Source: Rubrivivax sp. (GTDB lineage: Bacteria > Pseudomonadota > Gammaproteobacteria > Burkholderiales > Burkholderiaceae_C). From it: 64,000 nt of DNA. Below, in pieces: positions 10,059 to 49,012 of this stretch. The position numbers were made by a program, and so were the translations under genes. Under the pieces are notes generated by a model. That model did no database searches, had not been told where the DNA came from, and worked only from the letters and a program-made list of their open reading frames with translations. Within the stretch, counting starts at the first letter, position 1, and every line of letters starts with the position of its first letter. Where the stretch lies: NCBI GenBank assembly GCA_027487585.1, contig JAIYDH010000385.1:43-64042 (forward strand), given 5' to 3'.

Positions 10059-10135
10059 CGGGGTGTAGCGCAGCCTGGTAGCGCAATTGCTTTGGGAGCA
10101 ATGGGTCGAAGGTTCGAATCCTTTCACCCCGACCA
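10059..10135 (+). tRNA. tRNA-Pro (anticodon TGG)
   Basis: CGGGGTGTAGCGCAGCCTGGTAGCGC...ATTGCT-TTGGG-AGCAAT...GGTTCGAATCC...CACCCCGACCA; 77 nt cloverleaf ending in CCA. Confidence 0.95.
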
Positions 10136-10464
10136 TTCACATCAAGCATCTGCACCGATCAGGTGAACTCCGCCGCCTGGCGGGGTAGCGCCGGGGGAAG
10201 CAGCCAAGGCGGCTTGCGGTCGGACGGCATGCAGGGTGAAGCGGCCGCCTCTGCACCGACTGCGCCCTGTCGGGATGCCTGTCCTGCCGGGCATGCGACA
10301 TACAGCAGCCCATCTGTACCCCGCCGTTGCCTCCAGGGGCCACTTGCGGGGCGCCTACGGGCCTTCCCCAGCGTGCGCGCGGGCCGTGACCGCCTCAGCA
10401 AGGCCGTATACCTGCGCAGTCGGCCCTGAGCAACCCGCGTGCCGCTCTACGCTCTCGTTTTGAG

Positions 10465-11290
10465 CGTCAGCCGAGGCGGCGGCGCCGCTCTGGCCAAGCA
10501 CGATCAGGGCGATTGAGGCCAAGAGAAGCACCCGCAGGTGCGCCAGGATCAGCCGCAGGTTGTGCCCGGCGCCTCACAGCACCGCGTGGATCGCGTCACT
10601 GTCGCTGCCCTTGAGCCCGTTGCGCGCCAGCAGACCGTCGGTCTTCATGTGCCCGATGGGGGGCTCGATGGCCTGGTGACGCTTGAGCAGTTTCTTCAGT
10701 GCAGGCGGCAGGCCTCGGGTGTGGCTGATCAGAAGCTGCGTGCCCTCAGGCGGCGCTACGCCGCGGTAGCCCCGGTCGGCCAGGGCCATGGTGGGCTTCA
10801 CACCGGTCAGGATCTCCACCTGCTCGAGCTGGCTGTGCTGCGTGTGGCCGTCGTACCGCGAGCCGGGCATCGAGCGCATGCCCACCACCACGCCTTCCTT
10901 GGCCGTCACGGCCACCGAGGTCTTCACGCCGAACTCGTACGGCGTCCTGGCACAAGCCCCAAAGCGATGCACTCCACCTCGGGTGCGTGTAGCGCGTACA
11001 GCTTGTTCTTGGAGTCCCGCTGCTGGGCGTGCAGGCGCTGCGCGGTCTCGATGCAGGTCTTCAGGGTGCCAGTGATCTCGCCAGCCTTGCGCTGCACGTC
11101 GCGGATCACCCGGCCCAACCACGTGCGCAGCTTCTTCACCTCGCGCAGCATGCGGAGCCACTGCTGCGCATGAGCATAGCGGCCAGCCACCAGTTGCTCC
11201 CGCGCCCGGTTGAGCAGAAGGCGTCGGTGTGGTGCGCAATCGCCTTGGGCTGCACCGTCGTGTCCACGATCATGGCATGCGGGGGGGGCA
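10465..11290 (-). pseudogene. IS5-family transposase remnant (frameshifted, 5'-truncated)
   Basis: Pieces in different frames: 'VDTTVQPKAIAH', 'RYAHAQQW.RM.REVKKLRTWLGRVIRD', 'KNKLYALHAPEVECI', 'PYEFGVK', 'DRGYRG', 'AIEPPIGHMKTDGLLARNGLKG..DAIHAVL', 'GHNLRLIL'. Confidence 0.85.
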
Positions 11291-12009
11291 GTGGCGCCTG
11301 TGCCAGCCGCGATGCTGCAACCAGGCTGGCGCCGCCCGAGGAGCTCGTGTTCGTGGAAACGAGGTTGCCGGCCCCGACGGGCAAGTCCTCGACGCTTGGC
11401 GCAGCCGGGCTGCGCGGCCACGCGCTCCTGGGCGCGCCCGGCTTGGCTGAGGTGCGGATGCCGACCCGGGTGATTGGCGGCGCCGGCGGGCACCGCCAAG
11501 CGCCGCGCCGGGCCCGTTTCATGCCCGCGGTGGGCGATCTGCAGCGGCGCGAACGGATCGCAGACCTGAGCCTGGGCCTGGCGGCCGCCGACAGCGCCCG
11601 CATCGACGTTGGCAAGAACACGGGGCTGTGGTGCCAGCCTCACCGCGTGCGGGGCAAGCCCAGAACCGAGCCGCTTATCAGGGCAGGCAGACCCCGGGCG
11701 ATGACCGGGTGGGGTGCCCCAGCACCTCATGGGTGGCGGCTGCACCGGCTTCCGCTTCAAGCACCTCACGTAGGTGATGAAGCGCGCCGAGCGCCGCTCC
11801 AGGCGGGACGAAGACCGCGCCGCCCTGCTTGGCTGCCTGGTTCCGTGGCTACGACCCGTCCCTCAACCCGCTGCGCAAAGGCAAGGTGCCCCTGCTGGTG
11901 CTCATCGTCGTGCGGGTGGTTGGCGGGGTCCTGTTCACGTTCAGGCGCGGGGTGGAAGACCCCTGAGCACACCGCCGCGCCGCACACCCCTCGACTGTCC
12001 CTTGCCACC

Positions 12010-12446
12010 GGAGCCCGCGATGAAGCCCACGCTCGCTCCACGTGGACGATGTCGTTGTCGATGGTCTTGGGTACGCCCACCGTGGGCAGGCCATGGCGGT
12101 CGAGCGCGCCGGCCATGCTCATGCTGCCGTTCCCGCCGATGGCCACCACGCCGTCCAGCCCCAGCTCACAGGCGTATGCCACCACGTCGCCGCGCGAGTC
12201 GCGCCCCTGGTACGACAAGGGCCTCACGCGGTTGCTGGTGCCGAGAAGGGTGCCGCCGAGCAGCGACATGCCGCACACCGACTGCCAGTCTAGCGGCCGC
12301 ACGCGCCGCTCGATGAGGCCCAGGTAGCCGCCTTAGATGACCAGCACCTGCGCGCCGCTATGGTGGATGAGCGACTTGGTGACCGAGCGGATCACCGCAT
12401 TGAGGCCGGGAGCGTCGTCCCCGCCGGTGAGAACGCCGAAGCGCAT
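12010..12446 (-). pseudogene. pfkA: 6-phosphofructokinase (PfkA-family) 5' fragment
   Basis: 'MRFGVLTGGDDAPGLNAVIRSV' then an in-frame TAA (12333-12335), 'GGTLLGTSNR', 'VAIGGNGSM', 'VGVPKTIDNDI'; homology stops shortly after. Confidence 0.85.
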
Positions 12447-12489
12447 GTGTGCTTCCGATGTTGTGGCCGCAATGGTGTGACCCCCTCTC

Positions 12490-46916: not shown

Positions 46917-47770
46917 GGCTGGACTCCCCTGTCGAAGTCACTGGCTTCGTGGCGCTCGGGCAATTGGCTCTCCGGCGCGCCCCAGGTGCGGTTGACGCGC
47001 CGCCCGCGCTGCACGGCCGGGCGCTGTGCGATGTCGTCGGCCCAGCGCAGCACGTGCATGTACTCGTGCACCTGCAGGAACTCGCCGGCTTCGTAGATCT
47101 GGCCCTTCGCGAGCGCGCCGTACCAAGGCCACACGGCCATGTCGGCCACGGTGTACTGGTCGCCAGCGAGGTAACGCGTTTCGGCCAGGCGGCGGTTCAG
47201 CACGTCCATCTGTCGCTTGGCTTCCATGGCGAAGCGGTCGATGGCGTATTCGATCTTTGTCGGCGCATACGCATAAAAGTGCCCGAAGCCGCCGCCCAGG
47301 TAGGGCGCGCTGCCCATCTGCCAGAACAGCCACGAGAGGCACTCGGTCCGGGCTGGCTGCTCCGTGGGCAGGAAGGCGCCGAATTTCTCCGCCAGGTGCA
47401 GCAGGATGGCGCCGGACTCGAACACCCGGATGGGCTGTGGGCCGCTTCGGTCAAGCAGTGCGGGTATCTTCGAATTGGGGTTCACGCCCACAAAGCCACT
47501 GCCGAACTGGTCGCCCTGGTTGATGCGGATGAGCCATGCGTCGTACTCCGCACCGCTGTGCCCCAAGGCAAGCAGTTCTTCCAGCATCACAGTCACCTTC
47601 ACGCCATTGGGCGTGGCCAGCGAATACAGCTGCATGGGATGACGACCCACCGGCAGTTCCTTGTCGTGTGTGGGCCCGGCAATGGGGCGGTTGATGTTGG
47701 CGAACTGGCCGCCATTGGCCTTGTCCCAGACCCAGACCTTGGGTGGCGTGTAGGCCGGTATGTCGCTCAT
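46913..47770 (-). CDS. yghU: Glutathione-dependent disulfide-bond oxidoreductase (YghU-like)
   Basis: 'YTPPKVWVW...GGQFANINRPIAGPTHDKELPVG.HP.QLYSLATPNGVKVT...NPNSKIPAL..RS...FESGAIL'. Confidence 0.9.
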   Translation of the reverse strand: MSDIPAYTPPKVWVWDKANGGQFANINRPIAGPTHDKELPVGRHPMQLYSLATPNGVKVTVMLEELLALGHSGAEYDAWLIRINQGDQFGSGFVGVNPNSKIPALLDRSGPQPIRVFESGAILLHLAEKFGAFLPTEQPARTECLSWLFWQMGSAPYLGGGFGHFYAYAPTKIEYAIDRFAMEAKRQMDVLNRRLAETRYLAGDQYTVADMAVWPWYGALAKGQIYEAGEFLQVHEYMHVLRWADDIAQRPAVQRGRRVNRTWGAPESQLPERHEASDFDRGVQP

Positions 47771-48142
47771 GGGCTTCTGCTCCTTGGGTGATGGCGTGCG
47801 AGGGTAGCCGCGAAATCCCACGGCGCCCCCGCCACGGCCTTCCGTGCGTGCGGCCGGCGCTGCGGGCCCGATCATTCGGATCACCCGCCCGGGCCGAACT
47901 CGGGCGCTCGGGAGGTCGCTTGGGTTTCCCATGCGCCCACGGGTGCCGGGCGTTAGGGATCGCCGCCGGCGACGGCCTCCGGACACCGGCTACCGGAGGC
48001 CACGAACGCCTGCTTCCTGGAAGCAAAGCCCGCAGGTGGCCGGTCCGGGCGGCGGGCAGCTTCAGTGAAGCCCGACGGGCACCTTGGGGTCGAGAGTGTG
48101 AGTCGACAAGCGGGCATCGCAGACGCCCGAGACAACATCGCC

Positions 48143-48385
48143 TCAAACCCAGCCTTGGCGCCAAAGATTCGCGTCGGTCAGATCCCGCCAGTTCAGTAGG
48201 TACACCCGCTTGGAATGCACGGCCTCCAGCTCGACATGCTCGACGCGCATCGAAGGTGGTTCGGGTTCGACGACGAGCGTGACCACGAAGTGCTTTTCCC
48301 GATTGCGCGGCGTCACCGCCGTCCACTTCGTCATCAATAGCTTCTTGGGGCTAAGCGGGTTCTTTGGCGCCCGGTGCTTGGGCAT
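48143..48385 (-). CDS. TIGR02450-family Trp-rich small protein
   Basis: 'PKKLLMTKWTAV.PRNREKHFVVT...VELEAVHSKR...WRDL.D...WRQGW'. Confidence 0.85.
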   Translation of the reverse strand: MPKHRAPKNPLSPKKLLMTKWTAVTPRNREKHFVVTLVVEPEPPSMRVEHVELEAVHSKRVYLLNWRDLTDANLWRQGWV

Positions 48386-48964
48386 GGTCGCGACAGACAC
48401 GGGCTCAGGGTCGGGCTTCATGGACAGTGATGATGCGGCACGCTTCGACCCACCGGCTGCTGCTCGCCAGAAAGAAGACTTTCATCCGGCGGGTCTACGC
48501 CTCGGCGAATGACTGCCAGTTGCCGGTTACCGTGAATACCGAAGCCGAACGTGGAGCGCGGCAACCGCTGCATAGCCGACCCGTCAGTCACCGATCAAGC
48601 AGCCGGCACGAGCCCGTTACGCCACGGTTCCTGCTTTTGCCTCCTCTTCGGGAGGTCTCGTGCACCCAGTGCTGTGGCAGCACGCTCCGTGCGCGTGGCT
48701 GCCGCTGCGGAGCCCAGGGGCGGCGCGCCGAGCCAATCTCTTCACAGGTCGGCCGCGCCGCCGACCAGGGTGCACGATGTGCAAGGTTCGGCAAGGCAGG
48801 CCCGACGCCTGCCGAGCTCGCCTTCTGCGGGGTAGCACCGGGGTAGCAGCCCAGCGATATGCAGCGAATCCTTGCGTAGCCTGGGCATTTGCGCGAAGGG
48901 TGCCGCTGCCAGGTGAAGCGCGGCTACGGCACGTTGCGCAAACTCCATCGACAGGCGGGCTGTC

Positions 48965-49012
48965 TGCTTTGCGAGCAACGGGTCGAAGGTTCGATTTCTT
49001 TCACCCCGACCA
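48965..49012 (+). repeat. attR-like direct repeat of the tRNA-Pro 3' end
   Basis: tgctttgcgagcaacgggtcgaaggttcgatttctttcaccccgacca versus 10088-10135 tgctttgggagcaatgggtcgaaggttcgaatcctttcaccccgacca; 44/48 identical by hand alignment. Confidence 0.9.

Follow-up and report, generated by a model that had tools for sequence, protein, structure and literature searches.

The DNA analysed here, called the window, is a stretch of 64,000 nucleotides of Rubrivivax sp. (contig JAIYDH010000385.1 of assembly GCA_027487585.1). An intact tRNA-Pro(TGG) gene lies in its left part, and a copy of the 3' part of this gene lies about 39 kb downstream. The interval between the two copies (10136-48964; 38.8 kb) is a mosaic of pseudogenes, an extracellular contractile injection system (eCIS), which is a toxin injector resembling a phage tail, a regulator, a pair of glutathione S-transferase (GST) genes and a DUF2389 gene. 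Its edges are non-coding over ~360 nt at the left and ~540 nt at the right. The subject of this report is the origin of the interval and of its eCIS. The coordinates of the features are collected in Table 1.

The tRNA-Pro repeat and the empty sites

An earlier note, made from the sequence alone, had claimed that the last 48 nt of the tRNA-Pro gene (10088-10135) recur at 48965-49012 with four mismatches. The repeat search agreed with this and added one base, as 10088-10136 and 48965-49013 are identical at 45 of 49 positions (92%). A 34-nt sub-pattern with <=3 mismatches matched the two repeat sites only, and 100 shuffles gave no match, corresponding to a chance level of 0. The mismatches are G/C at 10095 (the third anticodon base, TGG being changed to TGC in the distal copy), T/C at 10102 (the last base of the anticodon stem), A/T at 10118 (the T-loop A) and C/T at 10120 (the first base of the 3' strand of the T-stem). 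The identity starts at position 30 of the tRNA and breaks off sharply on both sides. Upstream of the distal copy, 29 nt match the 5' part of the tRNA at 7/29 positions, and over the 50 nt that follow each copy 11/50 positions agree. Because the identity stops abruptly on both flanks, the distal copy is a 3' fragment starting in the anticodon stem, and not a second degenerate tRNA. No tRNA was called at 48965-49013 by ARAGORN or Rfam, and the alternative of a separate degenerate tRNA at 49 kb, which the earlier note had named, is contradicted. The tRNA genes of the window are tRNA-Pro(TGG) (10059-10135, plus strand) and tRNA-Arg(TCT) (52008-52084, minus strand). Five tRNA-Pro calls were obtained in the genome, and the fragment is closest to the tRNA-Pro on its own contig. 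A second tRNA-Pro(TGG) of the assembly, on contig C323 (10817-10892), is very divergent and could be borne by a mobile element or be a contaminant.

Empty sites were searched in 60 relatives using the two joined flanks as the query, and 17 loci were fetched. The order across the genus is EamA, AsnC, (RraA), tRNA-Pro, a repeat protein homologous to that of 49279-50079, and UvrD. In three relatives (G013, G033 and G011) the right-flank gene follows tRNA-Pro directly, after ~70-125 nt, and in three others (G028, G031 and G361) a single contig holds tRNA-Pro and the UvrD flank near each other, without intervening island genes. Thus, the empty site for which the earlier note had proposed a search is present in relatives. 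At this site, inserts of 1 to 18 kb are present in other species; their genes are ordinary ones (Usp, MarR, transporters, thiolase, a Lon-like protease and TPR regulators), and among the PF00589 matches listed there is no recombinase in the tRNA-Pro-adjacent inserts of 12 relatives. A single tRNA-Pro without a second fragment was observed in 17/17 fetched relatives, and genes of the interval were present at the tRNA-Pro site in 0/17, so that synteny of the whole interval as core genome, a possibility also raised earlier, was not observed. The closest near-complete relative, G426 (3 contigs), has the most similar flanks, with amino-acid identities of 85% for EamA, 77% for UvrD and 88% for the neighbouring GST. 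In its genome, the interval DNA is matched only at the IS5 fragment and at a paralog of phosphofructokinase (PFK). As a separate observation, one contig of G002 ends exactly at the 3' end of tRNA-Pro (C53:25430-25515), a break that would fit a repeat or an island there.

The right flank of the window corresponds to this genus-wide order. The repeat protein (49279-50079), the UvrD/Rep helicase (49844-51967) and tRNA-Arg are ordinary genes beginning ~270 nt right of the repeat, well inside the distance of about 1 kb given in the earlier note. The composition also changes at the repeat, according to the GC and k-mer profiles suggested there. The GC content is 0.669 inside the interval, compared with 0.71 in both flanks and 0.70 genome-wide. 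The tetranucleotide distance to the genome mean does not exceed the 35th percentile in the flanks and reaches the 71st-95th in the interval, with sharp edges at both ends.

Probable arms of the island and the missing recombinase

The DNA just inside both ends was compared, and one common 17-mer was found, which is part of an 11-mer tandem (GGGGTAGCRSC x2). The exact 11-mer has 12 occurrences in the 4.43 Mb genome, three of them in the island ends, and the tandem has only two sites, one inside each island end, with identical orientation. The tandem is present in 4/222 same-genus genomes, and a reversed control pattern is present in 0/222. Comparators were picked from a metagenome collection by the tandem motif alone (95 matches, 80 analysed). 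At 19 attL-like loci, a tRNA gene or T-loop ends 47-72 nt before the motif. The tRNAs are those for Arg, Met, Ala, Phe, Pro, Asn and Lys. Eight of these loci have an offset of 47-48 nt, as in the window. In many attL-like loci with different tRNAs, the CCA end is followed at 5-12 nt by an AATCAAS box. At nine attR-like loci, of which five are repeat sightings of two elements (about five are independent), a tRNA 3' part from the anticodon region follows the motif, with the T-loop at +159 to +182 (+158 in the window).

The open reading frame (ORF) adjacent to the motif in comparator L195 encodes a protein with the Pfam domains Arm-DNA-bind_3, Phage_int_M and Phage_integrase, indicating a P4-type integrase. 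A tblastn search with this ORF detected homologs no more than 450 nt from the motif in 21 loci. The integrase lies next to the motif in 9/9 attR-like loci and in 0/19 attL-like loci, and in the attR-like loci the gene is on the opposite strand and starts 6-64 nt to the left of the motif. From this spacing and integrase adjacency, the 11-mer pairs are putative arm-type sites of the motif-linked P4-type integrase family, and the window ends would be the genuine attL and attR of one such element. The lost integrase gene would be expected immediately left of 48829 on the minus strand, because that is where the attR-like comparators have theirs. At seven metagenome loci (among L133-L212) the motif is followed after 26-430 nt by an integrase gene on the same strand, and no tRNA is nearby.

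The spacing bears on another history, in which the second copy would be the leftover of a tandemly duplicated tRNA-Pro gene and the interval would be ordinary variable chromosome. tRNA genes are often duplicated, and the stretch downstream of tRNA-Pro differs in length among relatives and holds ordinary genes. However, two tRNA-Pro genes at the site were found in no relative, the fragment begins exactly in the anticodon stem with random sequence upstream, and its distance from the arm motif equals that in the integrase-bearing attR sites. This history is extremely improbable.

The left arm was found again in a sister organism. L206 (VYLP01001288.1), a metagenome contig of 1.9 kb, is 88% identical to window 9936-10420. 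It extends from the end of the RraA gene through an identical tRNA-Pro to the motif-bearing P' arm, which is present in full. Past the P' arm it diverges into other cargo, beginning with an HTH_17 (excisionase/AlpA-type) ORF. The homology to the window ends ~75 nt before the IS5-family pseudogene. An IS5 insertion and an adjacent deletion have probably removed the excisionase-type module from the window. In G426, tRNA-Pro is followed by the motif at +47 and then by 8 kb of non-mobile genes, with no attR and no integrase. Because L206 and G426 keep the arm with other cargo, elements with these arms visited this tRNA-Pro repeatedly, and the arms outlive the recombination genes.

L206 also shows the attL junction independently, which argues against an artefact. 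A chimeric contig, joined at a conserved or repeated sequence with the island contiguous in no cell, is conceivable in a metagenome-type assembly of 413 contigs with 3.3% estimated contamination. It is nevertheless very unlikely, as a motif pair found nowhere else in the genome occurs at both ends and is arranged exactly as in real elements, and the repeats, with 92% identity, are imperfect and do not reach the length of the 119-nt overlaps at contig ends in this assembly.

The earlier note had found no tyrosine or serine recombinase at either end, and the searches performed here, which included the six-frame scan of the ends that it had proposed, gave the same result. A six-frame search of the genome with PF00589 gave five matches, none of them on the contig of the window, and PF00239 had no match in the whole genome. 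Six-frame Pfam scans of 10136-11800 and 47980-49020 (E<=1) detected no integrase or excisionase domain, the only domains being those of IS5 and DUF2389. The motif-linked integrase had no tblastn match in the window (E<=10), and no remnant is present left of 48829. Pfam scans of all long ORFs and the end regions detected no integration or transfer genes. The sole arm-domain integrase of the assembly lies on contig C344 (~11043-15300), ~3.5 kb from tRNA-Ser(GGA), and is ~25% identical to the motif-linked integrases; it probably belongs to a separate island. The remaining four tyrosine recombinases belong to the Xer or SAM-like type, and no cognate integrase was found elsewhere in the assembly. 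Many described islands lack an integrase, and its absence lowers the case for a mobile element, not the case for an island.

The empty sites, the composition break at both ends and the matching arm repeats independently support the view that site-specific integration into tRNA-Pro created the repeat. We consider it likely that the interval 10136-48964 derives, as a remnant, from a genomic island of a P4-type integrase at tRNA-Pro(TGG), which has lost the integrase and is most likely fixed. In the proposed mechanism, a P4-type tyrosine integrase with an arm-binding domain would have inserted the island into tRNA-Pro(TGG), with recombination within the stretch from the anticodon stem-loop to the tRNA 3' end. 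The element's own copy of this stretch would have rebuilt the tRNA, forming attL, and the 48-nt copy left at the far end would have become attR. Both ends would keep the arms of the element, each with a tandem GGGGTAGCRSC pair. In the decay that may have followed, the integrase gene, normally a few bases left of the attR-side pair, would have been deleted. An excisionase-type gene, such as the sister element keeps near attL, would also have been deleted, and the IS5 remnant now lies near attL. The cargo would comprise the eCIS with its regulator, leader-tagged effectors and a few metabolic genes.

Contents of the island and possible co-arrival of the eCIS

Table 1. Features of the tRNA-Pro locus in the window
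Feature	Position	Strand	Basis or remark
tRNA-Pro(TGG), intact, putative integration target	10059-10135	+	ARAGORN; Rfam RF00005, 67.5 bits
Candidate attL: intact tRNA-Pro(TGG) with its downstream arm	10059 onward	+	ARAGORN, Rfam
Candidate attL core: tRNA from anticodon stem (position 30) to CCA, plus 1 nt	10088-10136	+	direct repeat family D10
P' arm (putative)	10136-10420	+	ATCAAG box 10141-10146 conserved; ~88% identical to sister contig L206, which has different cargo
Tandem 11-mer GGGGTAGCGCC G GGGGAAGCAGC, candidate arm-type integrase site	10182-10204	+	47 nt past tRNA end
IS5-family transposase pseudogene, frameshifted, N-terminal part missing or degenerate	~10495-11400	-	PF01609; blastn to annotated IS5-family transposases
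Phosphofructokinase pseudogene, N-terminal half, one in-frame stop	~11950-12447	-	PF00365 positions 1-133 of 277, E 2.5e-34
eCIS operon	12490-40093	-	Pfam
Effector candidates	12490-16185	-	within eCIS operon
eCIS_core/DUF4157 protein	16288-16923	-	Pfam
NarL/LuxR-type response regulator and HisKA_3 histidine kinase	40157-41628	-	Pfam; synteny with eCIS in G235, G331, G063, G031
Second IS5-family fragment, inverted	41974-42062	+	81% identical to 11184-11271
Two leader-tagged ORFs, 680 and ~426 aa (one at 44408-45688)	42355-45688	+	leader SPRMxAQR..AFG as in effector candidates at other end
Two glutathione S-transferase genes, single-copy here	46281 to ~47770	-	Pfam
DUF2389 tryptophan-rich small protein gene	48140-48420	-	PF09493, E 1.9e-18
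Tandem 11-mer GGGGTAGCACC GGGGTAGCAGC, putative P arm	48829-48850	+	115 nt before tRNA fragment (136 nt to the core when counted from 48829); fragment T-loop at +158
Candidate attR core: displaced or duplicated tRNA-Pro 3' part, 4 mismatches	48965-49013	+	direct repeat
Right chromosomal flank: repeat protein and UvrD/Rep helicase	49279-51967	-	directly after tRNA-Pro in relatives

The structural and assembly genes of the eCIS encode an AAA ATPase, a tape measure protein, baseplate J-like and gp25 proteins, a VgrG-like spike, a CIS tube protein, two gp19 tube proteins, a sheath and a Pvc16_N protein. No capsid, portal or terminase family was matched among the long ORFs scanned, several of which have no Pfam match. 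Four unassigned ORFs, located in 12490-16185 and 42355-45688, have the common N-terminal motif SPRMxAQR......FG, and the DUF4157/eCIS_core protein has a weaker version of the leader (QLERIQAAFG). The leader-tagged ORFs flank the structural genes on both sides and on opposite strands, and the leader looks like a cargo-loading signal. Because these ORFs lie at both ends, the eCIS system spans 12490-45688 with the inner IS5 fragment within it. The IS5 remnants therefore do not delimit the eCIS as a transposon. A composite transposon formed by the IS5 pair was considered and rejected; identity between the fragments is 81% across 88 nt, and there are effector genes beyond the stretch that they bracket.

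The GST pair was considered as native core DNA, which would count against an island. Most same-genus genomes have the pair, at other loci and with 75-83% nucleotide identity, and it is absent from G426; the varying loci and this absence weaken the objection. The stretch 48119-48578, consisting of the DUF2389 gene and ~160 nt upstream, has a 77% identical copy elsewhere in the genome (C113:3594-4053) and homologs at 73-76% in several relatives.

The earlier note had inferred that the eCIS arrived on an integrative element. Integration into tRNA-Pro is supported as described above, and co-arrival of the eCIS is plausible, though unproven, in view of the mosaic interior and of relative G031. We put the chance that the eCIS came with the element at about even or somewhat better. 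Two observations favour co-arrival. The interval is atypical in composition over its whole length and is missing from relatives, and sheath homologs have a patchy distribution, being present in 13/120 same-genus genomes (52-86% identity) and in 55/300 other genomes of the family.

Several points weigh against an island that entered as one element with its eCIS. The nearest eCIS ortholog, in G031 (sheath 86%, ATPase 88.5%, kinase 81%), lies amid unrelated housekeeping-type genes at a different chromosomal site, and the tRNA-Pro site of G031 is without any gene of the interval. The eCIS of the window may thus have reached the tRNA-Pro site in a separate event. The eCIS and regulator module also occurs in other genera (G235, G331 and G063; Rhizobacter and Roseateles genomes), and no tRNA-Pro was found in the ~56 kb fetched around each of these loci. 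The interior is mosaic, with two diverged IS5 remnants, the PFK pseudogene and a GST pair that is located elsewhere in relatives with core-like identity, and the same arms carry other cargo in L206 and G426. To these are added the fragmented state of the assembly, the small number of independent attR-like loci, and the definition of the tandem motif, which was made post hoc from the window itself. As a side observation at the G031 locus, the DNA beyond the eCIS kinase (L129, on G031:C352, 1-1863) is homologous to a contig of the present genome that is unlinked to the window (C191:607-1993), and this homology may mark the G031 eCIS site as an empty site in this genome.

An alternative is that the att sites belong to an earlier, unrelated and gutted element, and that the eCIS, perhaps with the GST pair, entered later by tandem accretion with loss of an inner att, by IS5-mediated movement, or by homologous recombination with imported DNA. 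The mosaic interior with IS5 remnants at 10495-11400 and 41974-42062, the other loci of the GST pair in relatives and the G031 ortholog at a site other than tRNA-Pro are consistent with later entry. In addition, arms and cargo are separable, because the P' arm is kept with 8 kb of unrelated cargo in G426 and with yet other cargo in L206. However, neither an internal att copy nor a third motif exists, the inner IS5 fragment has leader-tagged effector genes to its left and to its right, identity between the two IS5 copies reaches only 81%, and the atypical composition extends across the whole interval. We regard later entry of the eCIS as possible but doubtful.

Mobility and comparison with known systems

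The earlier note had left two fates open, a fixed island or one mobilised in trans, and had taken the mismatches as a sign of an old event. An old and fixed island is favoured by the attR changes, which fall at positions essential for the tRNA, one of them in the anticodon loop, by the pseudogenes and by the lack of a cognate integrase. Mobilisation in trans is less likely. Crossover in the anticodon loop is known for integrases with an identity block from the loop to the tRNA end. If the crossover took place there, the G/C mismatch would hinder exchange between attL and attR. Because of this mismatch and because the assembly contains no cognate integrase, the island is most likely fixed in the chromosome.

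The fate that contrasts with fixation is that of a cis-mobilisable element (CIME), a cassette without its own recombinase that would still be excisable, in cis or trans, when a cognate element supplies Int and Xis. In ICEberg 2.0, CIMEs are elements that have lost the genes for integration and transfer and have retained attL and attR (PMC6323972). The island resembles them in its layout: these genes are gone, and both att regions remain, with both arm-motif pairs. Moreover, elements with the same arms recur at tRNA-Pro in the lineage. CIMEs are, however, defined by intact att sites and a demonstrated mobilisation by an integrative and conjugative element, whereas the attR of the window has four mismatches and no partner element. 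The attR core differs at 4/48 positions, including one in the anticodon loop, where the overlap region probably lies by analogy with lambda-type integrases. No cognate integrase is present in the assembly, its sole arm-domain integrase, near tRNA-Ser, being ~25% identical to the motif-linked ones, and the pseudogenes point to long residence. We therefore think it unlikely that the island can still be excised.

A broader proposal can be made from the comparators. The GGGGTAGCRSC tandem might be the common arm code of a large, unnamed family of P4-type elements in soil and freshwater bacteria, which would have been retargeted to at least seven tRNAs while keeping the arms, and the eCIS island might be an integrase-less cassette still movable by a cognate integrase at the same tRNA. 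We offer this as a speculative proposal with a rather low probability. If it is true, eCIS loci gain a concrete chromosomal vehicle for horizontal spread. As a practical marker, the paired arm motif predicts the position of the missing integrase, links the sister element and retrieves relatives at many tRNAs from metagenomes. A motif scan of viral contigs gave 0 matches. When a plasmid collection was searched with the island ends, the left end gave IS5 matches only and the right end gave none.

Among known elements, the pSAM2-type elements of Streptomyces target a tRNA-Pro gene with a long identity segment. The island is similar in its tRNA-Pro target and in the identity block from the anticodon region to the 3' end, but pSAM2 belongs to a different phylum and probably has different arm sequences. 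An old tRNA island without an integrase is an ordinary kind of object. Genomic islands inserted at tRNA genes are characterized by the tRNA target, flanking direct repeats and deviating composition (PMC2704930). Like P4-type tRNA islands, the present one has an insertion in the tRNA 3' part, a distal direct repeat, atypical composition and accessory cargo, with putative arm-type repeats on both sides of the core, and the integrase of its comparators has the Arm-DNA-bind_3, Phage_int_M and Phage_integrase domains. Unlike them, it is without an integrase or excisionase gene, and its repeat of 48 nt is longer than the usual 16-20 bp (PMC2704930). The word GGGGTAGCRSC and the fixed 47-nt offset were not found named in the papers cited here.

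The eCIS itself is of the Afp/PVC type (PMC6899500), having the sheath, tube, spike, baseplate, tape measure, AAA ATPase, Pvc16-type cap, eCIS_core (DUF4157) and adjacent effector candidates. In the survey of Chen et al., extensive horizontal transfer was inferred from the patchy distribution of eCIS and plasmids were named as carriers, with no mention of integrases or mobile elements (PMC6899500). Integrase, tRNA and genomic island are also unmentioned in a 2023 review of eCIS (PMC10598620). In contrast to the plasmid carriers named in the survey, the eCIS of the window is flanked by chromosomal att sites belonging to a tRNA island. Its position between recognisable att sites of an integrase family that targets tRNA genes would represent one concrete chromosomal route, now dead here. 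The locus is a useful example and not a new principle.

Two minor observations concern the right flank. The gene 49279-50079 has no Pfam family and is conserved beside tRNA-Pro across the genus; it contains an internal direct repeat of 147 nt with 70% identity (49401-49547 and 49611-49757). The tRNA-Arg(TCT) gene just past UvrD may be a second island hotspot, as a tyrosine integrase of G012 (C47:224740-225210) lies ~1.8 kb beyond the UvrD match, and in G010 and G360 tRNA-Pro and tRNA-Arg are adjacent.

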